IMG/VR virus record: IMGVR_UViG_3300045988_145635
Reading direction: 5' to 3' (one strand)
Length of the DNA stretch: 64,000 nucleotides
Source of the DNA: a virus
Taxonomy: Duplodnaviria > Heunggongvirae > Uroviricota > Caudoviricetes
Under the pieces are notes generated by a model. It had not been told where the DNA came from. It saw only the letters and a program-made list of their open reading frames with translations, and searched no databases. Below are positions 487 through 61,954 of the stretch, piece by piece (position 1 is the first letter of the stretch; each line of letters starts with the position of its first letter). The position numbers and the translations under genes are program-made.

Positions 487-669
487 CGTTCCCCTACTGA
501 AAATAAAGCCCATAGAGAGCTTTATAGTGCTGGGTAAGCCAATCACATACCCAGCACCACAAAAACGCGCCAGAGAGCTTCTCGTTTGCATTTCTGGCGC
601 GTTTTATTTGATTGCCAGACATAAAATCAAATGCAAAAATAGGTATTTACTTACCTATCGAGAAAGAAG

Positions 670-1263: not shown

Positions 1264-1285
1264 TTTGTTCTGGCGTCTGTAATTA

Positions 1286-1342
1286 GCCTGCTTCTGTATA
1301 TATAAATAACTACATATTAATTATTAATATACGGAAGCAGGC
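1286..1342. repeat. Long palindrome, copy A (17-bp arms GCCTGCTTCTGTATATA with AT-rich centre); likely factor-independent terminator
   Basis: Near-perfect inverted repeat gcctgcttctgtatata / tatatacggaagcaggc followed by TGTTTTGT; related copies at 32642-32696 and 63945-64000. Confidence 0.6.
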
Positions 1343-1448
1343 TGTTTTGTATCAGAGACTCCAGACCTGAACATCACTACAGAATCCACTAGAACCCCTT
1401 CCCAGACGCTTTAAAATCGATTTTATGAACCACTTTAAGGAAACCAAC

Positions 1449-1676
1449 ATGTCATACCCGACTAATGTCGTTGCGCTCGTAGAGAGCGATTTTCTGGCCC
1501 AGGCTCGTGAAATGATGAAAGATCGTGAGCAGGCTTTCAACTTGTACGAATGGGCAATTAAGTGCTTGCATCTTGGCGAGCATCGCGAACTTGTTGAACA
1601 GCTTTTAGGTGAGTTGATCAATGAGGTGTTTGCCTTGAATGTTCAACTACATGGTAGAGAAAATAATCAATCATAA
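1449..1676 (+). CDS. Hypothetical small protein
   Basis: ORF with AAGGAAACC spacer before ATG at 1449; no motif recognised. Confidence 0.4.
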   Translation: MSYPTNVVALVESDFLAQAREMMKDREQAFNLYEWAIKCLHLGEHRELVEQLLGELINEVFALNVQLHGRENNQS

Positions 1677-2264
1677 TGATAGATAAGTACAAACTATTCA
1701 TAAAGTGAATTGTAAGTGCTAAGATCTGATAGTTTCCAGTCGTAGACTGGAGACTCGACCTGATGGGTGGGGGTAAGCGTCACTGGCGTCAGGTTTAAAA
1801 AAAGCTCACTACCAGCGTAGAACTGGTGCCGTTTAGGTGTCGGGGAAGGGGGAACCAAAGTGAGCGGAGACAAGGGTCACTTTATGATTGTCGAGTCTGG
1901 GGTGTTTCGAGAGGTTGAATCCAGTACTCCCCTTCATAAAGTGTGGGAAGATCTCGGTTCTGGGGTGCTGTCATCCATAACTTCCCAAGTCTAAGCTGGC
2001 AGTAGACTTAGACCATAACTTTTCAGGTTATGAAACGACCAGGTTGGTGAGGGATTTTTATACTCACCTCCCTGGGAGAGTATTACCTGAAAAGACAACC
2101 TCTCACTTCGTTCGAGGTGAACTTCACTCACTTCGTTCGTTCAGTTCAGGTTTATAAAAACCTGTTCTGGGAAGTAATTTGTTTATTTTAATAATTATTA
2201 ACACGCACGCGTGTGCGCACGCGCGAGGAAAAAAATCGGCGCGGCGCTTGATTCAGGAGTTTAT

Positions 2265-2858
2265 ATGACGACGAAGACACCAGCCCGATCGCAAGAAAAA
2301 ACTCGCAAAAAAGCCAAAAACAAAAATTCTCCCCGCACCAATTCCACAACGCCTGTCGTAGAGTTCAATCCCCAGCTTAAAACCGTGAAAATCTTCAGTG
2401 ATGGCTCTTGCCTTAAAAATCCGGGTGGCCCGGGCGGTTACGGTATAGTTCTCCAGTATCGTGGTGAGGAACGCGAGTTCTCAGATGGTTTTCATAGCAC
2501 CACCAATAACCGCATGGAGATGATGGGGGCACTTATCGGGCTGGAGCGTTTGAAATATCCATGCAACGTTATTTTGCACTCTGATAGCCAGTATCTGAAA
2601 AACGGCATGACACAGTGGATGAAATGGTGGAAACGCAATGGATGGATGACTTCTGACAAAAAACCGGTAAAGAATGTTGATCTGTGGAAGCGTCTGGATG
2701 AGGCCGCAAGTCGACATAATGTTCGCTGGAAGTGGGTTAAAGGTCACGCCGGGCATCGTGAAAATGAAATATGTGATCGACTCGCGAAGATCGCAGCTTT
2801 TTCCGCAGCAGATATGCCTCACAAGAAAGATATTGGTTTTGTTTACAACAAGCAGTAA
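2265..2858 (+). CDS. rnhA: Ribonuclease HI homologue
   Basis: [59 protein letters not shown] match RNase HI active-site regions; AGGAG RBS before ATG 2265. Confidence 0.8.
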
Positions 2859-3003
2859 GTAAGTGTTTACCTATCATTTTAAATCATGTATCTTATCGGC
2901 GTCAGGATGACAATGTGTCGGTAAGACACAGTTCCAGGATGGAACGAGAAAGGCGGCTGGCAATCGCCAGCCGCAACTCTTTCTGACACTGGATGGAGTC
3001 CAC

Positions 3004-3498
3004 ATGGCACGTCAAACCTATTTCACTTCTGCAACTAAACGTCCTCGTTCACTACGTCAAATTTTGGCCGAATTATTTAGCGGTCGTGTTCTGTCACGTC
3101 TTGATGAACTAGAGACTGCCGTTCGGTTGCTGAATGAACGTTTAGATAAGCAAGCGTCAGTTGTTGCGAACGTGGGGGCGATTGTTACCTCTGGTTCTTC
3201 ACGCGAAGCGAAAAGTACACGGCCTTTAGTGAAGGAGAAAAACAACAAGGACAGTTCGAATGGAAAATTTTCAAAGAAAGAGGCTGAAACCAATGGCCTA
3301 CGTTCTCATTATAGTTTCACTGGCGACGGTAGCCGTTCCAGCCGGCCAGAGCCTTTTGATGCCGGGTTCATCCATCACCACACCTCCGTCGACGACAATT
3401 ACCACCACTCCAGTAGAGCGTCCTGTCACTCTGGATGGGATGACGGTGGATGCGATACCTCAAGTTCATCCAGTTACTCAGGATCATGCTGTGACTAA
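3004..3498 (+). CDS. Hypothetical protein (Ser-rich low-complexity C-terminus)
   Basis: ORF with GGATGGAG upstream; an overlapping alternative frame encodes a hydrophobic peptide so the true frame is uncertain. Confidence 0.3.
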   Translation: MARQTYFTSATKRPRSLRQILAELFSGRVLSRLDELETAVRLLNERLDKQASVVANVGAIVTSGSSREAKSTRPLVKEKNNKDSSNGKFSKKEAETNGLRSHYSFTGDGSRSSRPEPFDAGFIHHHTSVDDNYHHSSRASCHSGWDDGGCDTSSSSSYSGSCCD

Positions 3499-3507
3499 GG
3501 CGGTTGT

Positions 3508-3705
3508 ATGAACTGGTTTTCAAATCACTTTGGAAAAACTTGGCTGGCGATTCTGGCTTTCATAGCTCTCATGGCCGCCGGTTGGGTATCGAACATTGTA
3601 AAACTCGTTTGCTCTGGTGATCTCCAGTTTCAGGCTGGTATGACCTTGGCTCGTGTTGTTGGGATTTTTGTTTTTCCAGTCGGTTCGGTACTTGGTTATT
3701 TCTGA
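3508..3705 (+). CDS. Small membrane protein (2 predicted TM segments)
   Basis: 65 aa, hydrophobic stretches LAILAFIALMAAGWV and VVGIFVFPVGSVLGYF. Confidence 0.4.
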   Translation: MNWFSNHFGKTWLAILAFIALMAAGWVSNIVKLVCSGDLQFQAGMTLARVVGIFVFPVGSVLGYF

Positions 3706-3798
3706 CGGTTGTTAGTGCATATGCATTGACCGTCTTTTCGTAAGCAATTCATGTAACTAGAAAACAACTTGTTTTAACAAATAACAAAAGGAAAGCAC

Positions 3799-4224
3799 AT
3801 GTTAGGTTTATTCAAAAAGAAAACTCGTAAAGCTGTTATCGAGGTCAAAAAAATGGAGAACCGAGATGCGGTTGAAGCCACCGTGTGGGGCGCGTACATG
3901 ATCTCCTATGCCGATGGCACATGCGACGCAAAGGAAATTTCCATTCTTGAGAAAACAATTGCAGCTCTGCCTGCGTTTTCTCCGTTTGCTGGTGAGATTG
4001 CCCAAATGAGCGCCAATATCCGTGCTCAATACGAAGCCTCACCGCGCCGCGCTAATGCCCAGGCTTTACGTGAGCTGGCTGATGTGGCCGGGACTAATGA
4101 TGCAGTAGATGTACTGTGTCTGTGCCTTGATATTGCCGACCAAGACGGTATTGGCGAACAAGAAGAGCTGGCCCTGAAAAAGATCGCACAGGCGCTTCAG
4201 TTGTCACTGGATGCTTATCTCTAA
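3799..4224 (+). CDS. TerB-like domain protein
   Basis: Two DG-x-x-D/E-x-x-E-x-x-x-L segments (YADGTCDAKEISILEKTIAAL; DIADQDGIGEQEELALKKIAQAL) as in TerB-family proteins; operator motif A upstream. Confidence 0.55.
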   Translation: MLGLFKKKTRKAVIEVKKMENRDAVEATVWGAYMISYADGTCDAKEISILEKTIAALPAFSPFAGEIAQMSANIRAQYEASPRRANAQALRELADVAGTNDAVDVLCLCLDIADQDGIGEQEELALKKIAQALQLSLDAYL

Positions 4225-4382
4225 TGCTTGAGAGATTCCGGCTTGTGACCGTCATTGCTCTTCTGGTGATGGCGGTGTTGGTGGATTTTACGGGAAAGAT
4301 GATGTCTGTCATTTCTGATGGCGTCCTCATTGGTCTGGCGATCTACTTCGCTTATCCGCTAGTCCGTAAAGCAACGTGTTAA
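4224..4382 (+). CDS. Small hydrophobic protein (52 aa), translationally coupled to TerB-like gene
   Basis: ATG overlaps the TAA of the upstream gene (TAATG); MLERFRLVTVIALLVMAVLV... two hydrophobic segments; below the ORF-track length cutoff. Confidence 0.4.
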   Translation: MLERFRLVTVIALLVMAVLVDFTGKMMSVISDGVLIGLAIYFAYPLVRKATC

Positions 4383-4521
4383 TGACAAGGGCCAAATGGC
4401 CCTTGTGTTTCGTTGACCGAAATAGAGAGTTTGCACCTTTACGTTTAGCTTGCTCCCCTTTTATGCCACATCACAATAAAGCCAATAAGAAAACAACTTG
4501 TTTAAGCATTAGGAAAAACAC

Positions 4522-5091
4522 ATGTGCAAGAAATGCAAAGCGATAGCTGATGAACAAAACGCCTTATTCGAAGAAATGGATGCTAATGAACTGGTCAAAA
4601 TGTTAGCCATTCTTCGAGGAATAGAAGACGTTTCCATATTTGAGAGAGTGGTTACAGCACTTAATTTTGAGTCCACCTTTGAAGAGCCAACTCAGGTTGT
4701 AGCTTTAGCACATCATTTCGGTGTTCATTATCTTGCTGAAAAAGAGCGCGCTGATAAGTTGCAGGCGACTTTGGATATGGTGAGCGAGACTCAACGAACT
4801 GATGACACTAACAAGAGTGAGGCGATTATTGCCAGCAAAGATCGTGAAATTGCTGGGCTTAAATCCTCTCTAACGATGTTGATGTCTGCGTTCAATCTTA
4901 TGTCTTCTCAGGCGGGTTATAAAATGCCATCACTAAACAGCGATGATCCGATGGCCGTTCGTCAGCTTTTGGGAGCAATGGCCGACCAACTCGACGACAC
5001 AAAGAGTCGGCTTGAAGACATGATGCGTGAGTTAAGCCATCGACATAACCTCGCAACACAGCCACACAAAGCCTTTCAAAGCTCTAATTGA
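4522..5091 (+). CDS. Hypothetical protein
   Basis: 189-aa ORF preceded by operator motif A (4488-4504). Confidence 0.5.
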   Translation: MCKKCKAIADEQNALFEEMDANELVKMLAILRGIEDVSIFERVVTALNFESTFEEPTQVVALAHHFGVHYLAEKERADKLQATLDMVSETQRTDDTNKSEAIIASKDREIAGLKSSLTMLMSAFNLMSSQAGYKMPSLNSDDPMAVRQLLGAMADQLDDTKSRLEDMMRELSHRHNLATQPHKAFQSSN

Positions 5092-5146
5092 TCTGATATG
5101 GCCGCATGATCGGCCATATTGTGTTGATAAAAAACAAGGATGAAAA

Positions 5147-5428
5147 ATGGCATACGGTACAGGGATTTACAACAATAAAGGAATTAACGTTACTGGCTTC
5201 CTTACTCCTATTTTTTTTCTTGATCGATTTACTGCGTCATCAGGCTCTAAGACGTACTCCAATCCGCCACCGGGTAAATCGCTACATGCCGTGTGGTCAT
5301 TGATGCCTCTTAACAACGACAACTACATTAATTTACCTGTTCCAACAGTTACTATTAATGGAAATACGGTTAGTTGGTCAAATTTATATACGGGGCTTGG
5401 TTCTTACATATACACATACTGGGGATAA
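5147..5428 (+). CDS. Hypothetical protein (AT-rich gene)
   Basis: ORF with AAGGATG RBS; low GC relative to neighbours. Confidence 0.4.
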   Translation: MAYGTGIYNNKGINVTGFLTPIFFLDRFTASSGSKTYSNPPPGKSLHAVWSLMPLNNDNYINLPVPTVTINGNTVSWSNLYTGLGSYIYTYWG

Positions 5429-5430
5429 TT

Positions 5431-6045
5431 ATGTTCGGGATGTCAATTACTCAATCAGATGGAAGTTTGTGGATGAGTCCAGAATTTACTCCGCAAAATC
5501 TGATTAATAAAGGGACAATGTCTACATCTAAAGGTTCTGTTTTTCAAACATCAATCCCATCAAACAAATCATGCTTTTTCTTCATAAAAAGCAGTAATAA
5601 GGCGAACATGATGTTTATTCATGAGCATAGTAACGGATACAATGCTCTCAGATTGCATCAGGTAAATGGTAGCCCCGGAACAATAACAGTTTATGCTTTT
5701 TCTGATATGGTGTTACCACATTCTGGCTATGGCATTGCCATGTATAACAGCGCAGGCGCAATGGTGTATCACGGTGAGATGATGCCCCTTGATGCGAAAC
5801 TTATCACTATTTCGGACCCTCAATTTACCATAGATGTGGGGTATCCGTGTGCGGTAATGCCTGCTATGGTTGGGGTTTATAACTATAGACGAACCGATTA
5901 CGACAGACCTGTCTATGTAACTATGACCGGTGCAACTGGAAACCAAGTATATAACGGTCAATGGTATTCCGGTAATGTCACATGGGATATTAAGAAGATT
6001 TATACAAACAAAATCCTGGTTATAAATACCTCAAAGTATGATTAG
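5431..6045 (+). CDS. Hypothetical Tyr/Gly/Asn-rich protein
   Basis: ORF immediately after the previous gene; AT-rich; no motif recognised. Confidence 0.45.
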   Translation: MFGMSITQSDGSLWMSPEFTPQNLINKGTMSTSKGSVFQTSIPSNKSCFFFIKSSNKANMMFIHEHSNGYNALRLHQVNGSPGTITVYAFSDMVLPHSGYGIAMYNSAGAMVYHGEMMPLDAKLITISDPQFTIDVGYPCAVMPAMVGVYNYRRTDYDRPVYVTMTGATGNQVYNGQWYSGNVTWDIKKIYTNKILVINTSKYD

Positions 6046-6148
6046 CAAATACCTTTATTTAAAGGATTGCCTGTTAATTTCTATTTAGCACCTTTTCATT
6101 TTTGAAATAATTGCACCATTAAACAAATCTTTTCTTAATGGTGCAATT

Positions 6149-7834
6149 ATGAATACAGCTCTTTCCATCATCGACGATGCCAACTCAAACACTGCTATCG
6201 ATTATCGTCAGGAAATGAACGTCATCCACGAAATTGTGGCCGAGTGCGAGAAGGAGATCGCCTTCATGTATCAGGTTCACGACTTCGTTTATGGAGACGA
6301 ACGCCACAACATGATTAATCGCCTGCTGCAACTGAACCACCGACCAGATGAAGAACGCTCACGTTTGAATCGAGCTTGGCTGGATAAAGTCGATCTGGAA
6401 TGGGTGAAACAGAATATTTGGGCCGAGTACTGGAGGAAGGTCACGGATATGACTAACGTTCTGCTGATCATGCCAGCTTCCCGTCGCGACGAGTGGCGTG
6501 AGCAGTTTATCGAGGGTAAGCAGGAAGTCATCAAAACTGACAGAACCGGCTATCAGATGAAGGTAAAAGAGTTCGTTGGTGTACCGGAGTTCAAAGCAGA
6601 AACGGTCATACCCACGATGCTTAATTTGCTGAATGACAGGCACAAATATCTCTCTGAGCGCGTGTATGGCTTGTTTAAGGCGCTGAGTCCTGCGCACAAG
6701 ACAAATAAGACAAACGGTTTCAGCGAACGTCTGATAATCGCTGACTGCATTTCTGATTTCTGGCGGGACAGCGTTAGTGTGAACTATCGCAAAGAGGACT
6801 ATATCGACGATCTGCGTGTCTTGCTTCATTTCTTCGCGCACAAAGAATTTATTACCATCAACCGCACTGCTGAGGTGCTATCAGCTGCGTATCGGGCAAA
6901 CGACTGCCAGACCGGTGACTGGATGAACGTCGATGGAAATCTGATGCGCGTGAAGATGTTCAAGAACGGCAACGTTCACTTTGAAATACATCCTGACGTG
7001 GCCTGGAAGTTGAATGAGGTGCTGGCTTACAGTATGCCTGCTGCAATCCCCGCGCCATGTCGCACCGCGCCAAAAACACGGGCACCAAAGCAGTTCGGGT
7101 TAATCCAGAAGACGATCTCCGTGCCGGTTCGCACTGCGCTTCGTGACGGGCGATTGAGCAAAGACAAAGGCGTATGGTACTTCTCTGATTCAGCTCTCCA
7201 GAAGTCGCAGGTGGAAGAGCTTGAGCGCACACTGAGCTTCATTGGCGGCGTGCAGGAGAAAAAGCACTGGCAGTTCCCGTATGACATCGTCCATACGCTA
7301 AATACGATTGTGGCTACCGGTTTAATACCGGATACAAAATCACACCAGTTCTACCCTACCCCACGCTTGATTGCTGAGTACGTTGCCAGAGCCACTGAAT
7401 TGAAGCCTGGTGAGAAGCTGCTGGAGCCTCAAGCCGGACGTGGGGATCTTCTGGCCTATATTAACGCCGATCTGGAAGATGTTACCTGCATAGAAATCGC
7501 ACCTCTCTTCGCTGATATCCTGCGTGGAAAAGGGTATACGAACACGATTTGCTGCGACTTCATAAAGTGGTCTGAGGACAACGTAGGTTATCAGTTCGAC
7601 AAAATCGTTATGAACCCGCCGTATTCGCTTGGTCGTCATAGAGAGCACACGCTGGCTGCGCTGGGGCATCTGAAAGTCGGCGGGCGTCTTGTAGCAGTAT
7701 TGCCGGGCACTGCGCCAATACTGGACTGGATGACGATGGATAATTACGTTTATGCCAGAGGGAAGTCGTTTACCAACGAGTTTGAAGACACAGGGATCAC
7801 AGTCAGCGTATACGTTTTCAAACGCGTTAAATGA
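6149..7834 (+). CDS. DNA methyltransferase, gamma-class N6-adenine type, with ~340-aa N-terminal domain of unknown function
   Basis: C-terminal motifs in gamma order: FYPTP (motif X), LEPQAGRGDLL (motif I), IVMNPPYS (motif IV). Confidence 0.7.
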   Translation: MNTALSIIDDANSNTAIDYRQEMNVIHEIVAECEKEIAFMYQVHDFVYGDERHNMINRLLQLNHRPDEERSRLNRAWLDKVDLEWVKQNIWAEYWRKVTDMTNVLLIMPASRRDEWREQFIEGKQEVIKTDRTGYQMKVKEFVGVPEFKAETVIPTMLNLLNDRHKYLSERVYGLFKALSPAHKTNKTNGFSERLIIADCISDFWRDSVSVNYRKEDYIDDLRVLLHFFAHKEFITINRTAEVLSAAYRANDCQTGDWMNVDGNLMRVKMFKNGNVHFEIHPDVAWKLNEVLAYSMPAAIPAPCRTAPKTRAPKQFGLIQKTISVPVRTALRDGRLSKDKGVWYFSDSALQKSQVEELERTLSFIGGVQEKKHWQFPYDIVHTLNTIVATGLIPDTKSHQFYPTPRLIAEYVARATELKPGEKLLEPQAGRGDLLAYINADLEDVTCIEIAPLFADILRGKGYTNTICCDFIKWSEDNVGYQFDKIVMNPPYSLGRHREHTLAALGHLKVGGRLVAVLPGTAPILDWMTMDNYVYARGKSFTNEFEDTGITVSVYVFKRVK

Positions 7835-7895
7835 TAGGTAAATACTTACCTAATTTGTGTAAGAATGTAGTTACTAAACGATAAGAGAAAAACAC

Positions 7896-8980: not shown

Positions 8981-9035
8981 ACGCTACAAATCCTTCTGCG
9001 TGAATAAATAAAGGCCATAAGTTGTGGCCTTAAAT

Positions 9036-9091
9036 AAATTGTTTTCTGCCTTTTCTTATTTGTGAAAATAACCACAACTAGAAAACAACGG
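9036..9091 (+). promoter_or_regulatory. Conserved promoter/operator module (TTGTTTTCTGCC ... GAAAACAA half-sites)
   Basis: ~45-bp module shared with 17143-17210 and 21217-21262, lying directly upstream of a start codon. Confidence 0.5.
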
Positions 9092-12539: not shown

Positions 12540-12556
12540 GCAATAGTACGATAAAG

Positions 12557-12583
12557 AGGCCCCATGCTCTTGATGGGGCCTGT
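12557..12583 (+). terminator. Factor-independent terminator closing the left-arm operon
   Basis: AGGCCCCA-loop-TGGGGCCT stem followed by a T. Confidence 0.5.
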
Positions 12584-13304
12584 AGCAACTAGCGTTATGG
12601 ACGCTGGTTTACGTACTCAATGATCGCTTTGATAATCGCGAACATCGGCGGCACGATTTTGAACAGTAAGTTAACCATAACAGGCCTCACTTAGTTTTAT
12701 CGCGCCTAGCTGCAAATACCTTTGGGCTTGCCTTTGCAGTTGCAATATCTGTAGTCGCCAGATACTTACGGCACGATTTCGAGTTAAGGTAAGGTTTTAG
12801 AGTCACCAAAAACCTGGACTTAAATCTTCTTTGAGAACAACGATGTTTAGTAAATGGTCATTATTACCTGGTATGACCACTCAACGTTTCTTGATGAATC
12901 CAGTACATTCGGTTAATCTTAATTCAGTCGCCAGATACTTATGGCTCAGGAACAGAGCCGCAAACTCTGTTTCCTTTTAAAAAGCCCAGCCTAGTCAACT
13001 GGGCTTTTTAATGTCTATTTTTAACCCAATGAACCTTCAATACCGCAACATCAGTGTCTTGCGAATTAAGATAGTGTGTATAGGTTATGCATGCAAGTGC
13101 ATAACTCTGTGGATAACTCAGGAAGGAAAAAGTAGCTTCCGCGCAATTTAGGCCAGACAAGGCTTTCGCAAAAGTCAACAGAGAGAAAAAATTTGTTAAA
13201 AATAACGTTTGTTGGAATTGTATATATTTATGCCTTTCAATAGTTAGCATCTTATTAACATCTTTTTTAAGAGATAGAGTTCAAAAATATATAGCTTCAA
13301 CATA

Positions 13305-13324
13305 TACTGTATGTGTATACAGTA
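13305..13324 (+). promoter_or_regulatory. LexA (SOS) box
   Basis: TACTGTATGTGTATACAGTA fits CTGT-N8-ACAG; 17 nt upstream of the UmuD-prime-like start. Confidence 0.65.
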
Positions 13325-13340
13325 TTAAGAGGCGAGTATT

Positions 13341-13730
13341 ATGGGCTTCCCTTCTCCTGCGGCGGATTATGCTGAGAGCCGTATTTCTCTTGATCAGCAG
13401 ATAATTAGACATCCTTCAGCGACCTACTTCATGAGGGCAGCTGATAGTCATCATCGTGAGGGAATATTGCAGGGCGCATTGCTGGTGGTCGATTCCTCAC
13501 TTACCCCGGTTGATGGTTCTCTGCTTGTATGCGCTCTGGATGGGGAATATCGCGTAAAAAGATACCGGAAGTATCCACGTCAGCATCTGGAGGATTTAAG
13601 AACTGGTAAGAAGGAAGCATTGCCAAAGGATGACGATGGATGCACGGGCAGCAATGCCGTGTTTGGTGTGATCACTCACATTATCAACGACGCAAGAAGT
13701 GGCGAGTTTGATGATTGTCCTGTGATGTAG
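13341..13730 (+). CDS. UmuD-prime-like S24 peptidase-family protein (HumD-like, pre-truncated UmuD mimic)
   Basis: Begins MGFPSPAADY, i.e. at the position of the UmuD self-cleavage site; conserved Ser (ADS) and Lys (VKRYRK) positions; SOS box upstream. Confidence 0.7.
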   Translation: MGFPSPAADYAESRISLDQQIIRHPSATYFMRAADSHHREGILQGALLVVDSSLTPVDGSLLVCALDGEYRVKRYRKYPRQHLEDLRTGKKEALPKDDDGCTGSNAVFGVITHIINDARSGEFDDCPVM

Positions 13731-13767: not shown

Positions 13768-14868
13768 TCACACTGCGCGGAATGCGATTTCGCCAGGTAT
13801 TACTTCACCTTGCCAATACATTTGGGCAGCAACGCGATCTGCGAGGTCACGATAAATAGCCGTAAATTCGCTATCTGGACGACTAATAACGGTTGGTGTT
13901 CCGTTATCCAGATCTTCACGAAGAGAGATATGAAGTGGCATTTGGCCTAACAACTGCGTGTTGTATTTCTCGGCCAGTTTCTGTGCGCCACCGGTGCCAA
14001 AAATTGGCTCGTGATGACCGCAGTTACTGCAAATATGCACACTCATGTTTTCGACGATACCCAGTACCGGCACTTCGACTTTTTCGAACATCACAATGCC
14101 TTTCTTCGCATCGATCAGCGCGATGTCTTGCGGCGTAGTTACCACAACCGCACCAGTTACAGGAATGTTCTGCGCCAGCGTCAACTGAATATCACCAGTG
14201 CCCGGCGGCATATCGAGAACGAGATAGTCCAGATCAGGCCATAGAGTTTCCTGCAACATCTGCATCAGCGCCTTGCTGGCCATCGGTCCACGCCACACCA
14301 TTGCATTGTCGTCGGTGACCAGATAACCAATAGAGTTGGTTGCCAGGCCATGAGACATGATAGGTGCCATGTGAGTACCGTCCGGTGAGGTTGGACGTTG
14401 GTTTTCCGCGCCCAGCATGGTTGGAATTGATGGACCATAGATATCGGCATCCAAAATACCAACTTTCGCACCTTCAGCAGCCAACGCCAGTGCCAGATTT
14501 ACCGCCGTGGAGGATTTACCTACGCCGCCCTTGCCTGAGCTGACGGCGATAATGTTCTTAACGCCATTAATGCCTGGTTGGTTTTTGACGCGCTTAAGCG
14601 TGGCAATGTTGTACGACAGCTTCCAGTCAATAGCCTTTGCGCCAGTGATACGGAGCAGATCACCACTACATTGCTCTTTCAGGTCTTCAAAAGGCTTATT
14701 CCACACGAAAGGCATGATTAGTTCGACATGCAGTGTGTCATCCATCAACGCAACATGGTGTAACGCTTTAAGCGTAGTCAGGTTGTGTTTCAGGGTTGGG
14801 TGCTGAAAATTAGCCAGCGTACCGGCTACCATTGCTCTCAGGGCATCCGGCGATTTGGACTCGCTCAT
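13768..14868 (-). CDS. apbC: Fe-S cluster carrier ATPase ApbC (Mrp)
   Basis: 366 aa; Walker A SSGKGGVGKSS, CxxC (CSNCGH); near-identical over its length to enterobacterial Mrp as I recall it. Confidence 0.93.
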   Translation of the reverse strand: MSESKSPDALRAMVAGTLANFQHPTLKHNLTTLKALHHVALMDDTLHVELIMPFVWNKPFEDLKEQCSGDLLRITGAKAIDWKLSYNIATLKRVKNQPGINGVKNIIAVSSGKGGVGKSSTAVNLALALAAEGAKVGILDADIYGPSIPTMLGAENQRPTSPDGTHMAPIMSHGLATNSIGYLVTDDNAMVWRGPMASKALMQMLQETLWPDLDYLVLDMPPGTGDIQLTLAQNIPVTGAVVVTTPQDIALIDAKKGIVMFEKVEVPVLGIVENMSVHICSNCGHHEPIFGTGGAQKLAEKYNTQLLGQMPLHISLREDLDNGTPTVISRPDSEFTAIYRDLADRVAAQMYWQGEVIPGEIAFRAV

Positions 14869-15025
14869 CCCGTCTCCTTTATTTTAATTTGCGCAATTGT
14901 CGCCTTGTAGTGTACTCCAGCTACGACATTTAATCATTTATGAGAAATGCTGTTATCACATGGCAGACATAAGGCCATTTTGTTACTATCAAGCCCCTTT
15001 TCACTACAAAGAAGTAATGCCTACT

Positions 15026-17059
15026 ATGACCCAAGTCGCGAAGAAAATTCTGGTGACGTGCGCGCTGCCGTACGCTAACGGCTCAATCCACCTCGGCCAT
15101 ATGCTGGAGCACATCCAGGCTGATGTCTGGGTTCGTTACCAGCGAATGCGCGGCCACGAGGTTAATTTCATCTGTGCCGACGATGCCCACGGTACGCCGA
15201 TCATGCTGAAAGCGCAGCAGCTTGGTATCACACCGGAGCAGATGATTGGCGAAATGAGTCAGGAACACCAGACTGATTTCGCAGGCTTTAACATCAGCTA
15301 TGACAACTATCACTCGACGCACAGCGAAGAGAACCGTCAGTTGTCTGAGCTTATCTATACTCGCCTGAAAGAGAACGGTTTTATTAAAAACCGCACTATC
15401 TCTCAGTTGTACGACCCGGAAAAAGGCATGTTCCTGCCGGATCGTTTTGTAAAAGGCACCTGCCCGAAATGTAAAGCGCCAGATCAATACGGCGATAACT
15501 GTGAAGTCTGCGGCGCAACATATAGCCCGACTGAATTGATCGAGCCGAAATCGGTGGTTTCTGGCGCTACCCCGGTAATGCGTGATTCCGAACACTTCTT
15601 CTTTGATCTGCCTTCTTTCAGCGAAATGTTGCAGGCATGGACCCGCAGCGGCGCGTTGCAGGAGCAGGTGGCGAACAAAATGCAGGAATGGTTTGAATCC
15701 GGCCTGCAACAGTGGGATATCTCCCGCGATGCGCCTTACTTCGGTTTTGAAATTCCGGACGCGCCGGGCAAATATTTCTACGTCTGGCTGGACGCGCCGA
15801 TTGGCTACATGGGTTCCTTCAAGAATCTGTGCGACAAGCGCGGCGATACCACCAGCTTCGATGAATACTGGAAGAAAGACTCCACCGCCGAGCTGTACCA
15901 CTTCATCGGTAAAGATATTGTTTACTTCCACAGCCTGTTCTGGCCTGCCATGCTGGAAGGCAGCAACTTCCGCAAGCCGACCAACCTGTTTGTTCACGGC
16001 TATGTGACAGTGAACGGCGCGAAGATGTCCAAGTCTCGCGGTACCTTTATTAAAGCCAGCACCTGGCTGAATCATTTTGACGCCGACAGCCTGCGTTACT
16101 ACTACACTGCGAAACTCTCTTCGCGCATTGATGATATCGATCTCAACCTGGAGGATTTCGTTCAGCGCGTGAATGCCGATATCGTGAACAAAGTGGTTAA
16201 CCTGGCCTCCCGTAATGCAGGCTTTATCAACAAGCGTTTTGACGGCGTGCTGGCAAGCGAACTGGCTGACCCGCAACTGTACAAAACCTTTACTGATGCC
16301 GCTGAAGTGATTGGCGAAGCATGGGAAAGCCGCGAATTTGGTAAAGCTATCCGTGAAATCATGGCATTGGCTGACCTGGCTAACCGCTATGTCGATGAAC
16401 AGGCTCCGTGGGTGGTGGCGAAGCAGGAAGGGCGCGATGCCGATCTGCAGGCGATTTGCTCTATGGGCATTAACCTGTTCCGCGTGCTGATGACGTACCT
16501 GAAACCGGTACTGCCGAAACTGACTGAACGTGCAGAAGCATTCCTGAATACAGAACTGACCTGGGATGGTATCCAGCAACCGCTGCTGGGCCATAAAGTG
16601 AATCCGTTCAAGGCACTGTATAACCGTATCGATATGAAACAGGTGGAAGCACTGGTGGAAGCATCCAAAGAAGAAGTGAAAGCCACAGCCGCACCGGTAA
16701 CTGGCCCACTGGCTGACGACCCGATTCAGGAAACCATCACCTTTGACGACTTCGCCAAAGTTGACCTGCGTGTGGCGCTGATTGAAAACGCGGAGTTTGT
16801 TGAAGGCTCTGACAAACTGCTGCGTCTGACACTGGATCTCGGTGGGGAAAAGCGTAATGTCTTCTCAGGCATCCGTTCTGCTTATCCCGACCCACAGGCA
16901 TTGATTGGTCGTCACACCATTATGGTGGCTAACCTGGCTCCGCGTAAAATGCGCTTCGGTATCTCCGAAGGCATGGTGATGGCTGCTGGCCCCGGCGGGA
17001 AAGATATCTTCCTGTTAAGCCCGGATGCTGGTGCTAAACCTGGCCACCAGGTTAAGTAA
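15026..17059 (+). CDS. metG: Methionine--tRNA ligase
   Basis: HIGH motif (ANGSIHLGH), KMSKS motif, zinc knuckles CPKC/CEVC, C-terminal tRNA-binding domain; start chosen at [11 protein letters not shown] (the ORF-track start at 14897 is an upstream extension). Confidence 0.96.
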
Positions 17060-17106: not shown

Positions 17107-17142
17107 ATATAGACACAATCCCTTCTGATTTACGCATACCCT

Positions 17143-17210
17143 AAAACAATTTGTTTTCTGCCTTTTGTTAATTGAGATAATAAGCCACATAAGAAAACAA
17201 ATTGTTTCGG
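17143..17210 (+). promoter_or_regulatory. Paired operator motif A sites (AAAACAATTTGTTTT and AAGAAAACAAATTGTTT) flanking a GATAAT -10-like hexamer
   Basis: Two palindromes 48 bp apart immediately upstream of the 17221 start. Confidence 0.55.
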
Positions 17211-18379: not shown

Positions 18380-19200
18380 AATCACATCCTTAAATATCAA
18401 TAGGTTACAGTTGTTTATACCAATAAGAAAACAACTGAATAACAGATCAACGAAACATCAACGCTTTCACCCGATTTGGTCTAAAAAATTGACGTTTTCA
18501 CACATCACTGCTTATACCCGTAATTCTACGCAGCAGACAGCGCCACAGCGTCCAATTTTCACCACAGACGACCCAACACACTACCAACAAAAACACACGC
18601 TCAAAATCGTTCCCGTTGCGTTACATAACCATATAAACAACTTATTTTCAGGAATAACAAAACAACTAAATAACACATATGCCATTCCCAAAACAACCAA
18701 CCTCTTTATGGCAGGCTACCGAAAAGACCCACCTCTTCTTCCCAGGCTACCGGACAACCAACCTAACTTTCACAGGCAATCCGAAAACATTCATACGCGC
18801 GATACCCACGACACGCCATTACCCAAACAACGAAGAAACACCTGAACCACTGAAACCCCAACGAAGCCTGTTACCGCAAGGATTCTCTCAATCCCAAAAG
18901 ACACGAAACATAACAATCACGGGAAACGCCATTACCCAATACACGAATAACTACAAAAGCCCTTCACACACTCCAGACAAACAACTCAAACACAATAACG
19001 AAAGGAATCGCCCACCTGCCATTACTCCATACACGGAGAAGAACAATCACCAAAACGACGAGAACACCCCATAGAAGAACCACCGCAAAACGAACGAAAC
19101 CACATACACCGACAGAGAGAACAACACACCCAATTCACCAACAGAAATAGTCGCCGTATAGAACGTTCTGGAAGGAGTGAGCATTAACGCCTATAGAGAG
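18380..19200 (+). other. ORF-poor, strongly strand-asymmetric A+C-rich tract (G- and T-poor on the plus strand)
   Basis: ~0.8 kb dominated by A and C; contains short repeated CAGGCTACCG-like and CCACCTCTT motifs; six-frame ORFs here translate to low-complexity sequence. Confidence 0.55.
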
Positions 19201-19497: not shown

Positions 19498-19854
19498 CCG
19501 GTATAGCGTGAGGGAGAGTTGCGGCTGTCCACCTGTAATGTGCGGGAAGAAGAGAGGCGCTCACGTGCAGGCGAACTTACTTACCGTTGGACTCCCTCTG
19601 AATGCCCAGCTACAGCGTAATTGTGCCAGACAGTCAGCGGGTCACAATCGATTTCAGTAGGTTTTCGGGGAGAGGATTATTCTGCCCACCAGCCACCTTC
19701 GGCCACTAAATCAGAATAATGTAAAAAGTGTACTCGGTACTGAACCTGAAAACTCACTGCCAAAACCACATTCACCGGAATAAAATCCTTTTTCGCCTGT
19801 GCGTTATTGCGATAATAACACCAACAAGAAAACATGTTGTTTAAGGATTGCTTT

Positions 19855-20184: not shown

Positions 20185-20338
20185 CCCCAACCAAAGCCAG
20201 CATTGCTGGCTTAACTTAATCTGTAGCCGCAGGGAAGAACCTGCATATCGCCCATGCACCTGATCAATATGCTTTGTAGCCGTTTTCTTACTGGTATTAT
20301 TTACGCCATTGAGAAAACAAGTTGTTTACGGAGTTGTG

Positions 20339-20650: not shown

Positions 20651-20777
20651 TAATGTGCAAGTGGTAATTAGTCGACAGTACGACAGCCCCGCCATCCTTA
20701 CGGGGCTTTTTTTGTATTGTAAGTACATACTTACGATCATAGAATATAAAAATAACCAAAACACTACGGAGAGTGAA

Positions 20778-21173: not shown

Positions 21174-21290
21174 TCCTCTTTAAATGGCGCGTAAACCGCG
21201 CCATTTTCTTATACCCGATAACAATTTGTTTTCTGCCTTATCTGATTTGTGAAAATGATTTCACTGAAGCAACTTAATAAGGAAACCATC

Positions 21291-21810: not shown

Positions 21811-22014
21811 ATTATTAAGGCCACCAGCATTGGTGGCCTTAAATGACCATCCTGTTTCCCGCAGGCTAAAACACCAACCTCTTACCTCCAGGCAACCGAC
21901 AAACCCACCTGTTCCCGTCCGGCTACCGCAACTTTCCACTTTGACGCCTTATTCGTACAACGATAATTAACACCAACAAGAAAACAATTTGTTATTTACG
22001 ATAAGGAATTAATC

Positions 22015-24548: not shown

Positions 24549-24848
24549 TTACATCTTTTTTGCATAGTTCCTGATTTCTTTTATTATATATTCCTGAAAA
24601 CGCTCCGAGTTTTCGCATTTGTCTTTTGAAGACTCATCAAGTCCCAACTTGCATCCCGCAACGATCAGTCCATCTTGATATGCAGCGCCTAAAGCCATGC
24701 TTAGGTCTAACATGCACAAATCGTAGTCTTCCGCCTTTGAACACAACTCTGTAGAGACACGTTGCACTCGTTCAATGCTATTTTCTTGAGAAAATGCGGA
24801 AGAGCTAAAAATGAAAGTTAAGAATGTGAATGCTGCTACAGTTTTCAT
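24549..24848 (-). CDS. Small secreted Cys-containing protein (signal peptide)
   Basis: MKTVAAFTFLTFIFSSSAFSQE signal-like N-terminus; 4 Cys; terminator hairpin downstream (24505-24528). Confidence 0.5.
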   Translation of the reverse strand: MKTVAAFTFLTFIFSSSAFSQENSIERVQRVSTELCSKAEDYDLCMLDLSMALGAAYQDGLIVAGCKLGLDESSKDKCENSERFQEYIIKEIRNYAKKM

Positions 24849-24864
24849 ATCAATATCCTAAAAC

Positions 24865-24916
24865 GGTAAAATTCGGTCAACCAAATCGAAGAAAACAAGA
24901 ATTTTTCTGCCGTCTT
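24865..24916 (-). repeat. Promoter/leader direct repeat, copy 1 (also carries a remnant 3' gene end)
   Basis: ~52 bp near-identical to 25231-25282. Confidence 0.6.
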
Positions 24917-24923
24917 CATACAT

Positions 24924-25220
24924 TTATCGGACTGACTCTACAGCCTTACGATTGGTGTCAAAAAGCGCATCAACGAACAGCAATGAAGAGTTGTTCAATT
25001 CACATGGTTCATAATTTTCCACCTGTTCACATAGTTGAGCGGTCTTACCTATGTTTATCCCTAGTTTTACTGCTGCTGAAAGTTGAAACATGCAAACTGG
25101 AATATTCTGAGACGTTGAGCATACGTCATGCATCAGCGACTTAATAATTGCAATATCATCCTTTGCATTGGCTGAAATTGAGTAAACTAAAAATAATGAT
25201 GTCAATAGTATCGATTTCAT
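24924..25220 (-). CDS. Small secreted Cys-containing protein (signal peptide), same architecture as 24549-24848
   Basis: MKSILLTSLFLVYSISANA signal-like N-terminus; 4-5 Cys. Confidence 0.5.
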   Translation of the reverse strand: MKSILLTSLFLVYSISANAKDDIAIIKSLMHDVCSTSQNIPVCMFQLSAAVKLGINIGKTAQLCEQVENYEPCELNNSSLLFVDALFDTNRKAVESVR

Positions 25221-25223
25221 AAC

Positions 25224-25748
25224 TCAAAAAGGTAAAATTCGTTCAACCCAATCGAAGAAAACAAGAATTTTTCTGCCGTCTTTCAACTTAAGTGTGACTA
25301 GGCAGGCATCAACGCCATCTGACGTTCCCTCAATTTCGCGGCCGTCTGCCATGTAGACCCTTATAGATTGGCCGTTTTGATAAGCCTTGCGACATATCTT
25401 AAAAAAATCACGACGTGATGGCTGGTTGTCTACATAGTCAGGGTGTATTGTTAGTCTCCCTTTGAAATCGTAATCAATGCCATCAATTACGCCTGATTCA
25501 ATTGTGCTAATGCGCTCAAGTGGGAGCCTTATACGATTTTCTTTGTCAAATGGAGTTGGACAAAGGTCAACTTTGTTACGAGATGACATGAGACCATAAA
25601 CGTACATGCAAAACACTTGGCCGTCTTCGAGAGTGACTCTTACAGGAAATTTAGCCCTCCGCCAGAAGAGCAAGGTGCGTTCAGCATGTTCGTAGTCTCG
25701 CGGCCATACTTCAGCCGGTATGCCGTAGGTGATATCTTTCGTCGTCAT
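25224..25748 (-). CDS. Hypothetical protein
   Basis: Start placed at the internal Met so the gene abuts the upstream lipoprotein gene. Confidence 0.5.
   Translation of the reverse strand: MTTKDITYGIPAEVWPRDYEHAERTLLFWRRAKFPVRVTLEDGQVFCMYVYGLMSSRNKVDLCPTPFDKENRIRLPLERISTIESGVIDGIDYDFKGRLTIHPDYVDNQPSRRDFFKICRKAYQNGQSIRVYMADGREIEGTSDGVDACLVTLKLKDGRKILVFFDWVERILPF
25231..25282 (-). repeat. Promoter/leader direct repeat, copy 2 (overlaps the 3' end of gene 25224-25748)
   Basis: ~52 bp near-identical to 24865-24916. Confidence 0.6.
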
Positions 25749-25752
25749 ATCA

Positions 25753-26172
25753 TTATAAAGTGGTTGGCAATATGTCCATTGTACCATCCCAGGTAGTGAA
25801 AACCCGATATGTTTTCGAATCGCCCTGCTTTAGCTTTATTTCTCGTTCCATCCTGGAGGGGTTAAATGCGCAAAGACCTGAACTTTCAATTGATGTCCCA
25901 ACGATCCACTCTCCTTCGTTAAGGTAGAAAGTTGCTTTTTCACCAGGTTCTAGCTTTGCAGCCGTTTCTCCATTGATGAAAATGGAAGCGTTACATGCAG
26001 AACCAACCAGCCCTTTGTCTCGAACTATTGTTAGACTAGACTCATGTGGTGTTTGATATTTAAATATTCTGCTTTGAGGTGCATCCTTTGCCTTTGAAAT
26101 AGATATAGACGAAGACGAACACCCAATTAGTGACGTGGTTAGCATTAGAATCATTAAGTTTTTTGCTTTCAT
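25753..26172 (-). CDS. Lipoprotein (candidate superinfection-exclusion type)
   Basis: Signal peptide with lipobox LIGC; function inferred only from being a prophage-encoded lipoprotein. Confidence 0.5.
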   Translation of the reverse strand: MKAKNLMILMLTTSLIGCSSSSISISKAKDAPQSRIFKYQTPHESSLTIVRDKGLVGSACNASIFINGETAAKLEPGEKATFYLNEGEWIVGTSIESSGLCAFNPSRMEREIKLKQGDSKTYRVFTTWDGTMDILPTTL

Positions 26173-27520: not shown

Positions 27521-27799
27521 TTACGGCAACCTGCTCAGTATTTCCTCTAAATCTTTTTTTGTCATATTGGAGTTTTCATAGATGCGCATGATTTTCTCAC
27601 GCGTCTTAGCGGAAACCCCAACAGCAGATGTGACTTTGTCAAATTCAGCCATAGTCATCGTCTCCAGAATGGCATTGATAACTTCAGCCTTAGACATCTT
27701 AATTTTTTTCTCTTTGAGTTTTATTTGAAATTTTCCAAGTTTTTCATTGGCCTTATCAGACAATGCCACTTGGCAATAAGTTGTTTTTTTTTCGCTCAT
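27521..27799 (-). CDS. Small Lys-rich protein, translationally coupled to the helicase
   Basis: ATG 2 nt after the helicase stop. Confidence 0.45.
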   Translation of the reverse strand: MSEKKTTYCQVALSDKANEKLGKFQIKLKEKKIKMSKAEVINAILETMTMAEFDKVTSAVGVSAKTREKIMRIYENSNMTKKDLEEILSRLP

Positions 27800-29361: not shown

Positions 29362-29443
29362 AAACCTCTTTCCTTAGTGCCTTTTGTATGTTATTTGGCT
29401 ATTATAATAAGTAAGTGATTACTTAGTGGATTGTAGCAATAAA

Positions 29444-30124
29444 ATGGATGTAAAAATCACGATTTTGCAGGTTGATGTTGCCAACCTTCGCCCGAATACC
29501 TGGAACACCAATTCGGTTGGTGCGCAGAATTTTGAAAAACTGAAAGGTTCTATCGAAAAATTGGGCTTTTTTAAGCCAATTTTGGCTCGTGAACTTGAAG
29601 ATGGATTTTTTGAAATCCTCGGCGGCGAACATCGCTGGCGTGCCGCTATTGAGCAAGGAATTTCAACGGTTCCAGTGCTTTCTGTGGGCAAAATTAGCGA
29701 TGTCGTAGCTAAACAGATGTCACTGGTGGACAACGAGCGATACGGTGAAGACGACCAAATCGCATTGCAACGCTTCATTGAAGAAATTCAGTCAGAACTT
29801 GACTATCAACTGTCTGAAATCGCCCCGTATGACGACGAAATCTCGATGGTTTTAGCAAAAGAGGCGGCAATCGACCTTGAAGCACTGGAGGCGTTGTCTC
29901 GTGGTAGTGATGGGCCTGTCGATACCGACAAACGAGAGAAAACCGAACGTGTGGGGGCGGAACATCAGACCATGCGCTTCAAAGTAACTTTCGATGCGTC
30001 AGATCGTGTTGCAGAAACCATAAAAAACATCATCAAAGAGCAGGCTATTAACACCGGTAATGAAATGGAGAACGCTGGTGAGGCTCTGGTGTGGCTGGTC
30101 GACTACTACAAGGAGCGTATGTAA
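29444..30124 (+). CDS. ParB/Srx-fold (ParB-like nuclease domain) protein 1
   Basis: LRPNTWN and ILGGEHRWRAAIEQG match ParB N-domain boxes; motif B site upstream. Confidence 0.6.
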   Translation: MDVKITILQVDVANLRPNTWNTNSVGAQNFEKLKGSIEKLGFFKPILARELEDGFFEILGGEHRWRAAIEQGISTVPVLSVGKISDVVAKQMSLVDNERYGEDDQIALQRFIEEIQSELDYQLSEIAPYDDEISMVLAKEAAIDLEALEALSRGSDGPVDTDKREKTERVGAEHQTMRFKVTFDASDRVAETIKNIIKEQAINTGNEMENAGEALVWLVDYYKERM

Positions 30125-30792
30125 TGACCAAAAAGTTTGAAATCGTATATCGCGACCCGGCAGATCTTATTCCCTATGAGATGAATGCCAAAAAGCATGA
30201 TGAACAGCAGATCCGAGATCTGGCCGCAGCCATTAAAAAGCGCGGATTTGACCAGCCAATTACGGTCGATAAGAACGACGTAATTATTACTGGCCACGGC
30301 CGCCGTGAGGCTGCAATTTTTGCTGGACTTGAGCGCGTGCCGGTTATTGTTCGCGATGATCTGAGTGATGACGAGGTACGTGCAAAGCGCCTTGAAGATA
30401 ACCGACTTGCCAGCATTGATTACGATGCAATTAAGCTACAGAAAGAGCTTGAGTCGCTTGTTCTGGACGATATCGAGGTTTTCGGCTTCGAAGAGCGTGA
30501 GTTGAATGTTCTCGTTGGCAGTATGACAGAAGAAATGGACACCGACTCGCTAGTTATCGATCTTGGCGAAGAAACTAAACGACAGAAGGATGAACACACC
30601 GAGATCAGTCGTGAAGTTGCAGCGGAAGAAGTACGTGTTGTCGACGTATTGGGCTTTAAAACGCTCCCTGCTGGCTCTGCCATTGTTGTTGGTGATTTGC
30701 TTGCCCATATGGAAGAAATGACGGGAGAAAGCGGGGTAGACGCATTTGTGGCATATGCGGAGAAGATCTCTTCCGGGGAGATGGCTGCATGA
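30124..30792 (+). CDS. ParB/Srx-fold protein 2
   Basis: IITGHGRREAAIFAGLERVPVIV; TAATG coupling to the upstream gene. Confidence 0.6.
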   Translation: MTKKFEIVYRDPADLIPYEMNAKKHDEQQIRDLAAAIKKRGFDQPITVDKNDVIITGHGRREAAIFAGLERVPVIVRDDLSDDEVRAKRLEDNRLASIDYDAIKLQKELESLVLDDIEVFGFEERELNVLVGSMTEEMDTDSLVIDLGEETKRQKDEHTEISREVAAEEVRVVDVLGFKTLPAGSAIVVGDLLAHMEEMTGESGVDAFVAYAEKISSGEMAA

Positions 30793-32350: not shown

Positions 32351-32617
32351 ATGACGTTAACCGATAAACAAAAGGACATCATCAAAACGCTCAATCTCGG
32401 TTATGAGCGAGGTCATTTACTTGATCTGGACGAATTGCTTGAAGTTTTGCCGTACAAGACAACCAAGCAAAGTATCCAGTTCTCAATTCGCGCTCTGATA
32501 AAAAAGGGGCTGGTGGAGAAAGGGCATACGCGCCAACGCAGTGACAATCGCTATCACCGCCGGACTCTTGGGTTAACCACTTTAGGTCGAGCCAAAGCGA
32601 AGTTACTGGTGATGTAA
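32351..32617 (+). CDS. Small winged-helix-like DNA-binding protein
   Basis: 88 aa, basic C-terminus; last gene before the large palindrome. Confidence 0.4.
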   Translation: MTLTDKQKDIIKTLNLGYERGHLLDLDELLEVLPYKTTKQSIQFSIRALIKKGLVEKGHTRQRSDNRYHRRTLGLTTLGRAKAKLLVM

Positions 32618-32719: not shown

Positions 32720-32813
32720 AATTAAACACCCCAGAAAACAAGTTGGTTAGCATATGCAGTAAACAAGTTGTTTTAGAGCGCATGGACGCGCTCTGTGTGT
32801 TTTAGAGGGATCT

Positions 32814-40419: not shown

Positions 40420-40498
40420 CGCCAGTCGCATTATTTACTTTTGGTCTAAAGGGTTTTTGGCCAGTAATGAGAGCGACCGACAACAACAGGGAGAGAGC

Positions 40499-41692: not shown

Positions 41693-41766
41693 GTTAATCG
41701 GTAAGTATATACTTACTATTAGCGCAATGAATGCGTAGAATTAACGGAAAAAGGAGTTTTCCATCA

Positions 41767-55097: not shown

Positions 55098-55190
55098 TGG
55101 TGGAAAAAAAATTTTATATCGGTAAAAATAGGTAAGTATTTACTTAATGGCGGGCAAGGATAACCCGCCAAATCAAGGAGCATATTCAAC

Positions 55191-61934: not shown

Positions 61935-61954
61935 AAGAAAACAAGTTGTTTCAG
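61935..61954 (+). promoter_or_regulatory. Operator motif A site upstream of the ParA-like gene
   Basis: AAGAAAACAAGTTGTTTCAG palindrome 33 nt before the start. Confidence 0.5.

Follow-up and report, generated by a model that had tools for sequence, protein, structure and literature searches.

Sites of a single regulatory protein scattered over a replicon have been described in several plasmids and phages, with which a dispersed palindrome (family A) can be compared that lies on a 64,000-nucleotide stretch of DNA from a virus of the Caudoviricetes (IMG/VR record IMGVR_UViG_3300045988_145635; the whole stretch is called the window). Ribbon-helix-helix (RHH) ParB proteins recognise sites lying across the promoters of their own genes and of others (PMC9499535). 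In the omega system of pSM19035/Inc18 and the ParG system of TP228, a small ParA gene is followed by the gene of a small partner (PMC9499535, PMC3130281), the sites of which overlap promoters including its own, one protein serving both partition and the repression of several operons; omega binds arrays of 7-10 heptads at three promoters, and ParG binds tetramer boxes. KorB and KorA of the IncP plasmid RK2 have short palindromic operators in about a dozen copies on one replicon (PMC11790492), and KorB, which is also a partition protein, shuts off operons for replication, transfer and maintenance. It belongs to the CTPase clamps of the ParB family, works together with KorA and is able to act from a distance. 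Among phages, the C1 operators of P1 are repressor sites dispersed over the genome, as are those of mycobacteriophage L5. In L5, a member of Cluster A, more than 20 copies of one repressor site silence many units in the lysogen (PMC9283540). In both phages the site is asymmetric, being occupied by a monomer or in a single orientation, and the stoperators block elongation in intergenic gaps. The Sop system of the phage-plasmid N15, which is of type Ia (SopAB), is said to influence late gene expression, reportedly in work of Ravin et al. from 2008 (cited in PMC11652158). Its partition-protein sites, four 16-bp palindromes, are likewise scattered in the phage-plasmid genome (PMC7205306).

The window shares ~98% identity with Escherichia phage Cyrano (OV696614) of the SSU5 group, position 1 of Cyrano being position 32680 of the window, and Cyrano is the SSU5-like phage-plasmid pLF82 of E. 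coli LF82 (PMC9928086). It holds an accessory/early arm, a leftward regulatory island, a ParB-like operon, the complete structural and lysis operon, and the parA operon. Family A is best interpreted, with a probability of about 0.7, as a repressor operator that is locked to promoters and has not been described before, the ~20 promoters that carry it forming a regulon of the SSU5-type phage-plasmids of Enterobacteriaceae. In its logic the system resembles three known kinds, and it is not a member of any of them. As in omega and ParG, a small ParA gene is followed by a small partner, here predicted to bind DNA; unlike theirs, the site is a 19-bp palindrome, single or paired, at ~20 promoters that include those of phage late, replication and cargo genes. 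The likeness to KorB and KorA lies in the repeated short palindrome on one replicon, whereas the family A sites are promoter-locked, their sequence is unrelated to the operators of RK2, and the element's ParB-like genes (29426-30792) are off in the lysogen. The sites of L5 and P1 differ in form: instead of an asymmetric, transcription-oriented sequence, family A is a dyad with a free central base that has a constant spacing to the -10 hexamer and, at one promoter, is present in the two orientations, with no canonical immunity repressor linked to it and no copy in the XRE/cro-like immunity region of Cyrano. N15 shares the scattered sites of a phage-plasmid, but here they number ~20, are locked to promoters, and accompany a small ParA with a small partner.

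A palindrome in fixed register with the -10 hexamer

With at most one mismatch, the core AAACAANTTGTTT (also given as AAACAAnTTGTTT) has 13 matches in the window, compared with 0.54 expected, so its frequency is above that expected for the base composition; none of 100 dinucleotide-preserving shuffles reached 13. In an unbiased enumeration of all palindromes with two 6-nt arms and a gap, AAACAA-N1-TTGTTT ranks first with seven exact copies, against two or fewer in block shuffles. The full form of the operator is the 19-bp AGAAAACAAnTTGTTTTCT, also written AGAAAACAAnTTGTTT(TCT). A 21-nt matrix built from the sites identifies 12 strong sites (scores 24.6-32.7), all of them intergenic by the annotation of Cyrano, beyond which there are two left-arm-only copies (9080-9088 and 18426-18434) and one weak site (18632-18650) (Table 1). 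The initial annotation, which had reported such palindromes upstream of at least a dozen genes, placed a copy correctly at every plus-strand coordinate that it gave. What it took for split half-sites at 9036-9091 is indeed a family A location, but consists of an intact operator in inverted orientation (9029-9047) and, after it, a copy with the left arm alone (9080-9088). Its two related copies in the minus-strand island do not belong to the family: each scores only 12, that at 25256-25274 belongs to the coding sequence at the 3' end of an FljA-like gene (...KDGRKILVFFDWVERILPF*), and that at 24890-24908 is a duplicated remnant of the same coding segment.

When 25 non-redundant promoters, taken from the window, Cyrano and SSU5, are aligned by the centre of the palindrome, every one of them has a T at position -20 (2.0 bits), which is the last base of an nnTAAT hexamer at -25 to -20. 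The hexamer is typically GATAAT and is preceded by TGn in about half of the promoters. The arms of the palindrome carry 1.5-2.0 bits per position and its central base 0.0 bits, and conservation elsewhere is moderate, at -19 to -11 (tA.aCcaA) and in a T-rich or GCCTTTT stretch further upstream. The association of several sites with GATAAT-like hexamers had been pointed out in the initial annotation; it proves to be tighter than described, the register being invariant in 25 of 25 promoters. If transcription starts, as predicted, 6-8 nt past the hexamer, the operator would cover approximately +4 to +22. Several promoters have a further copy 51 bp upstream that runs in the opposite orientation (AAACAAnTTGTTTTCTGCC), covers the -35 region and comes directly behind a terminator-like hairpin, as with 17141-17159 (paired with 17192-17210), 9029-9047 (paired with the half-site at 9080) and 21216-21234; such inverted copies are present in the window and in the SSU5 and Klebsiella elements.

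Between the centre of the palindrome and the annotated start codon there are anything from 11 to 47 nt, whereas the -10 spacing is fixed, indicating that the promoter, not the ribosome-binding site, sets the position of the operator. This bears on the idea of an RNA-level element in the 5' leader, either a hairpin or a RegA-like translational operator, which might be entertained because transcripts probably include the gene-proximal copies, which often adjoin the Shine-Dalgarno sequence, on an element that carries T4-like replication and recombination genes (UvsW, UvsY and gp32-like). Besides the contrast between variable and fixed spacing, the inverted copies lie upstream, outside the transcript; five predicted leaders fold no better than shuffled sequences (minimum free energy -0.7 to -4.2 kcal/mol; z -0.12 to +0.92); and Rfam gives 0 hits in the window. 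An RNA-level role is highly improbable.

Table 1. Family A sites of the window, the promoter elements and genes that accompany them, and the two par genes (PWM, score with the position weight matrix).
Feature	Position	Strand	Details
Family A operator, gene-proximal orientation (AGAAAACAACTTGTTTTAA)	3759-3777	+	PWM 26.0; 22 nt before ATG 3799
TerB/TciA-like gene behind 3759-3777	ATG 3799	+	Pfam TerB; orthologous operator in Cyrano at 80555
Family A operator	4488-4506	+	PWM 31.0; ATG 4522; -10-like CACAAT 4472-4477; kept in SSU5 at 81751
Family A operator, inverted (AAATAAATTGTTTTCTGCC)	9029-9047	-	PWM 29.0 on minus strand; over -35 region of the gene 9100 promoter, right after a terminator-like hairpin
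Extended -10 TGtGAAAAT (hexamer 9064-9069), then left-arm-only AGAAAACAA (9080-9088)	9064-9088	+	ATG 9100, HD-domain protein; half-site kept in SSU5
Family A operator, inverted	17141-17159	-	PWM 32.7; centre ~-39 of the 17221 promoter; 51 bp centre-to-centre from 17192-17210
Extended -10 TGaGATAAT, between the paired operators	17173-17181	+	From sequence; invariant T at -20 from operator centre
Family A operator (AGAAAACAAATTGTTTCGG)	17192-17210	+	PWM 29.8; predicted ~+4 to +22; overlaps Shine-Dalgarno GGAG of DUF5983 gene (Pfam; ATG 17221)
Isolated left arm AGAAAACAA after -10-like hexamer TTTATA	18426-18434	+	Possible decayed module; membership uncertain
Weak family A-like site	18632-18650		PWM 10-12 only; ATG 18679; membership uncertain
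Family A operator after TGcGATAAT (hexamer 19811-19816)	19827-19845	+	PWM 30.2; likely true start ATG 19855
Family A operator after TGgTATTAT	20312-20330	+	PWM 29.6; ATG 20339; orthologues SSU5 92765, Klebsiella phage 37774
Family A operator, inverted, upstream of TGtGAAAAT	21216-21234	-	PWM 28.8; downstream class A copy decayed
Family A operator after CGATAAT	21979-21997	+	PWM 24.6; ATG 22015
Two tandem family A operators, 25 bp apart	32733-32751, 32758-32776	+	PWM 25.7, 30.2; promoter of terminase/late operon (terS ATG 32814)
Family A operator, best class A (gene-proximal) in window	61936-61954	+	PWM 32.2; parA promoter TTTACA-17-TAGGCT; ATG 61987
Small Walker-type ParA ATPase, 222 aa	61987-62655	+	PHROG ParA-like partition protein; NCBIfam ParA_partition below cut-off
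ParA partner, 119 aa, translationally coupled to parA (ATGA overlap at 62655)	62655-63014	+	Lead candidate binder

The sites are conserved well beyond the window. The complete genome of Cyrano has ~22 strong sites, of which those outside the window precede the replicative helicase gene, a cobT-like gene, CYRAN_58 and the gene of the ribonucleotide reductase (RNR) beta subunit. SSU5, from Salmonella, has ~25 sites (26 matches versus 0.54 expected in 50 kb), at the orthologous promoters of terS (two sites), parA, helicase, cobT-like and RNR beta genes, and also before genes annotated differently from any gene of Cyrano; at 85608 it repeats the arrangement found at window 9029-9047. Both operators of the terS promoter are kept in Cyrano and SSU5, and one is found at the corresponding place in a Klebsiella SSU5-like phage, which has an identical module architecture, and in the more distant plasmid CP027615.1, which has 16 sites in 50 kb. 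The parA and helicase-gene sites persist in contigs with a ParA partner of 61% and 51% identity. The flanks differ among these elements while the arms stay fixed, which indicates selection on the site and not recent copying. The regulon is thus not limited to accessory cassettes, as had been supposed, since it also takes in the terminase/late operon, parA, the replicative helicase, RNR beta and the cobT-like gene. In a relative from Moellerella (Morganellaceae) with the same gene order, no promoter-associated copy was found in 100 kb; only three hits reach a matrix score of at least 15 there, all in coding sequence.

Per-gene RNA-seq readings have been published for the Cyrano lysogen (PMC9928086 S1 Table; background median 9.8), and the first gene behind a motif promoter is at or near background in 13 of 15 cases, among them terS (7.1), CYRAN_47 (7.8), CYRAN_58 (5.7), CYRAN_70 (12.9), CYRAN_85 (7.0), CYRAN_87 (7.1), CYRAN_93 (6.3), CYRAN_101 (7.5; the DUF5983 gene at window 17221), CYRAN_105 (12.8), CYRAN_106 (12.2), CYRAN_108 (5.7) and CYRAN_110 (6.7). 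Readings above background are those of parA (49.8; its partner, 89), CYRAN_111 (25.5) and the helicase (21.1), the par operon being the main motif-led operon that is clearly expressed. Motif-free genes whose activity is expected in a plasmid prophage (toxin-antitoxin modules, repA, CYRAN_43, 45, 98, 99 and 117) read 92-7084. That promoters with a near-consensus extended -10 are nevertheless silent argues for repression.

The module is ordered (T-rich/GCCTTTT) - N9 - (TGn)nnTAAT - ~10 nt - operator - ribosome-binding site. In the proposed mechanism, a single element-encoded protein, as a dimer or a dimer of dimers, would occupy the operator at ~+4 to +22 and, at some promoters, also the second, inverted copy centred near -39; once bound it would block RNA polymerase, so that ~12 promoters of the window (~20 per genome) would be off during maintenance as a plasmid prophage. 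Two caveats apply to this interpretation. Most phage genes are off in a lysogen, and the silence of the motif-led genes is therefore permissive and not decisive; and the family A promoters are missed by a generic sigma-70 scan, which requires a -35 match. They are either extended -10 promoters or promoters in need of help.

Promoters in need of help could be under positive control, the palindrome being an activator site or an integral promoter element, and the phage activator required by these -35-less promoters not being made by the lysogen. A recognisable -35 is indeed absent from the family A promoters and TGn from about half of them, the inverted copies upstream have their centres around -39, near where a class II activator would sit, and two promoters retain only the left, -10-proximal arm. 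However, the copy that is constant lies downstream of the -10 hexamer at ~+13, which is a position for a repressor and not for an activator, and most promoters carry no other; many have a near-consensus extended -10 (TGnGATAAT), usually active without an activator, and the parA promoter combines a normal -35/-10 pair with the same site. Activation is accordingly considered unlikely. The initial annotation had proposed one dimeric regulator, whether repressor or activator: a common, probably dimeric regulator is well supported by the dyad with its free centre, the fixed register to the -10, the conservation of the sites and the coordinated silence of the lysogen, and of the two directions of control repression is favoured by the predicted position at ~+4 to +22 and by the optional second copies over the -35 region.

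The ParA partner and other candidate binders

The most likely binder, a tentative choice at somewhat short of even odds, is the 119-aa partner of ParA, a protein whose gene occurs in 797 plasmid records of Klebsiella, Escherichia, Enterobacter, Salmonella and other genera. Its conserved core (RPQGRPTRGK..IKSRTMS.EDE..FTRSDVIRAAI) is invariant down to 48% overall identity, and the segment IKSRT(M/V)S.EDE is invariant in all homologues; there is a sub-threshold match to RHH (aCcr1), and fold tests did not confirm the RHH fold. The site at the parA promoter is present in every lineage of Enterobacteriaceae examined and is kept where the partner is only 61%, 51% and 48% identical, and the sole intergenic motif-like half-sites of the Moellerella relative lie upstream of parA. 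Expression of the parA operon in the lysogen fits autoregulation through its own site. By binding there, at the best class A site, the partner would autoregulate its operon and tie plasmid partition to the silencing of phage genes. The record of Cyrano labels this gene 'RelE/ParE putative toxin', probably wrongly; its coupling to a small ParA and its sequence pattern point instead to a partition (centromere-binding) partner.

Two traits of type Ib partition modules of the ParG/omega type, whose centromere-binding protein is an RHH protein, are found at this locus: a small Walker ParA of 222 aa with an overlapping small partner gene, and a site (61936-61954) upstream of parA, between its promoter and its ATG. 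A third trait, an array of at least four contiguous short repeats as the centromere (PMC9499535), is absent, there being a single palindrome at parA and no half-site cluster nearby. It is conceivable, if doubtful, that the ParA partner doubles as the master silencer of the phage and that the 19-bp sites are both dispersed centromeres and operators. That the sites are primarily dispersed, parS-like centromeres of the ParA system, with an incidental effect on transcription, is quite improbable. The best class A site does lie at parA, no other repeat is found upstream of that gene, and the phage-plasmid N15 provides a precedent with its four separate centromere sites, IR1-4 (PMC7205306); but a centromere role leaves unexplained the invariant 20-nt register to the -10 at 25 promoters, the sites before newly acquired cassettes, and the paired sites that bracket promoters.

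A real operator may, on the other hand, be read by a protein other than the partner, either encoded by the element, such as the 92-aa RHH-like protein of 27521-27799, or a regulator of the enterobacterial host; this, too, is possible without being probable. In the lysogen the 92-aa protein has a reading of 114, it can be aligned in register, if weakly, with CopG (E 0.078), and the occurrence of the motif in elements of Escherichia, Salmonella and Klebsiella but not in that of the Morganellaceae would fit a host factor confined to Enterobacteriaceae. However, the predicted DNA-reading strand of the 92-aa protein varies (TTYCQVAL, AIHCQVQL, SISCQVKL, VSCHLKLT) among lineages in which the motif is identical. 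No E. coli regulator is known to have the family A consensus; the published sites of Cra, PurR, KdgR, DeoR, Fis, IHF, PhoP and other regulators are not known to fit it, and literature searches gave no match. The LexA box (CTGT-N8-ACAG) has a single good match in the window, at 13307-13326, and none coincides with a family A site.

Three further proteins are disfavoured as binders. The XRE repressor named by the authors of Cyrano, CYRAN_45, is encoded outside the window (PMC9928086); its own control region has different palindromes (GGTAAGTGCTTACC) and no family A site, and the gene is missing from SSU5, which keeps the motif. The S24 peptidase of 13341-13730 is without a DNA-binding domain and has a canonical LexA box upstream. 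The 88-aa winged helix-turn-helix (wHTH)-like protein of 32351-32617 is silent in the lysogen, and its recognition helix is unchanged in the motif-free Moellerella relative. Of the three small DNA-binding candidates put forward in the initial annotation, the comparative evidence speaks for 62655-63014 and against 32351-32617 and 27521-27799.

Other regulatory sequences and cargo of the element

A second family of dispersed palindromes, (GG)TAAGTAnnTACTTA(CC), has copies at 640-657, 2856-2873, 7835-7852, 20720-20733, 29408-29425, 36207-36220, 41702-41715, 55129-55146 and 59342-59355, each 2-3 nt past a -10-like hexamer. They lie mostly at the starts of late-gene and other operons (before the tail genes at 41731 and 55191, before the holin gene at 59407, and between the divergent UvsW-like and ParB-like operons). 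The family resembles the GGTAAGTGCTTACC palindromes in the XRE/cro-like switch of Cyrano and is shared with the Moellerella relative, which is without family A. Its members may be the operators either of the XRE repressor or of the conserved wHTH protein of 32351-32617.

The LexA box at 13307-13326 is near consensus (TACTGTATGTGTATACAGTA, 18/20) and lies 14 nt before the gene of the S24-peptidase-only protein (13341-13730, 129 aa), which resembles UmuD' and P1 HumD; the gene is on in the Cyrano lysogen. The element has just one more good LexA box (16/20), outside the window at Cyrano 41046-41065, before an integrase gene whose 3' end overlaps the XRE repressor gene CYRAN_45 convergently. Ciprofloxacin induces Cyrano 39-fold (PMC9928086), and SOS-driven antisense transcription into CYRAN_45 is a possible route of induction suggested by this arrangement.

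Between the terS operators and the ATG at 32814 there is a GC-rich hairpin (AGAGCGC-ATGGAC-GCGCTCT, 32775-32794) followed by GTGTGTTTT, a U-tract that extends to ~32805. In SSU5 and the Klebsiella phage its stem is kept and its loop is variable. The terS leader folds well (z -2.33), due to this separate GC hairpin and U-tract, which looks like a leader terminator and suggests that the late operon may also be under antitermination control.

The FljA-like gene, a homologue of the 'repressor of phase-1 flagellin', occupies 25224-25787 on the minus strand, and its Cyrano orthologue matches Pfam Flag1_repress. On its 3' side are the genes of two paralogous small signal-peptide proteins (24924-25220 and 24549-24848, minus strand). 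A duplication of ~65 bp carries the 3' end of the fljA-like gene, and the region 24549-25787 differs from Cyrano.

A full-length methionyl-tRNA synthetase gene (14897-17059) adjoins that of an Mrp/MinD-like ATPase (13768-14868, minus strand), the latter on in the Cyrano lysogen with a reading of 92; the two are unusual cargo for a phage-plasmid. The 800 bp of 12540-13340, where no gene is annotated in Cyrano, hold a repeated AGTCGCCAGATACTTA (~12752 and ~12927) and a terminator-like hairpin at ~12985, with no match in Rfam. Outside the window, CYRAN_43 (Cyrano 40268-40822; 184 aa) has a reading of 7084 in the lysogen, ~720 times background and far above every other gene; its sole family match is an unnamed PHROG, and the gene is absent from SSU5.

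Implications for SSU5-type phage-plasmids

Phage-plasmids of the SSU5/pHCM2 type are common, and the lysis-lysogeny control of the group is essentially unstudied: a 2024 review has nothing specific on it, and a literature search found no description of the family A motif or of SSU5-type regulation. An operator at ~20 promoters opens a direct way into this control: it defines a regulon, predicts which cargo genes are silent in carriers, and can serve as a simple bioinformatic marker by which to recognise the lineage. Should the partition protein prove to be the binder, phages would have their own counterpart of the global circuits that KorB and omega run in plasmids. One autoregulated protein would then run both plasmid segregation and the maintenance of lysogeny, in hundreds of clinical isolates of Escherichia, Klebsiella, Salmonella and Enterobacter.
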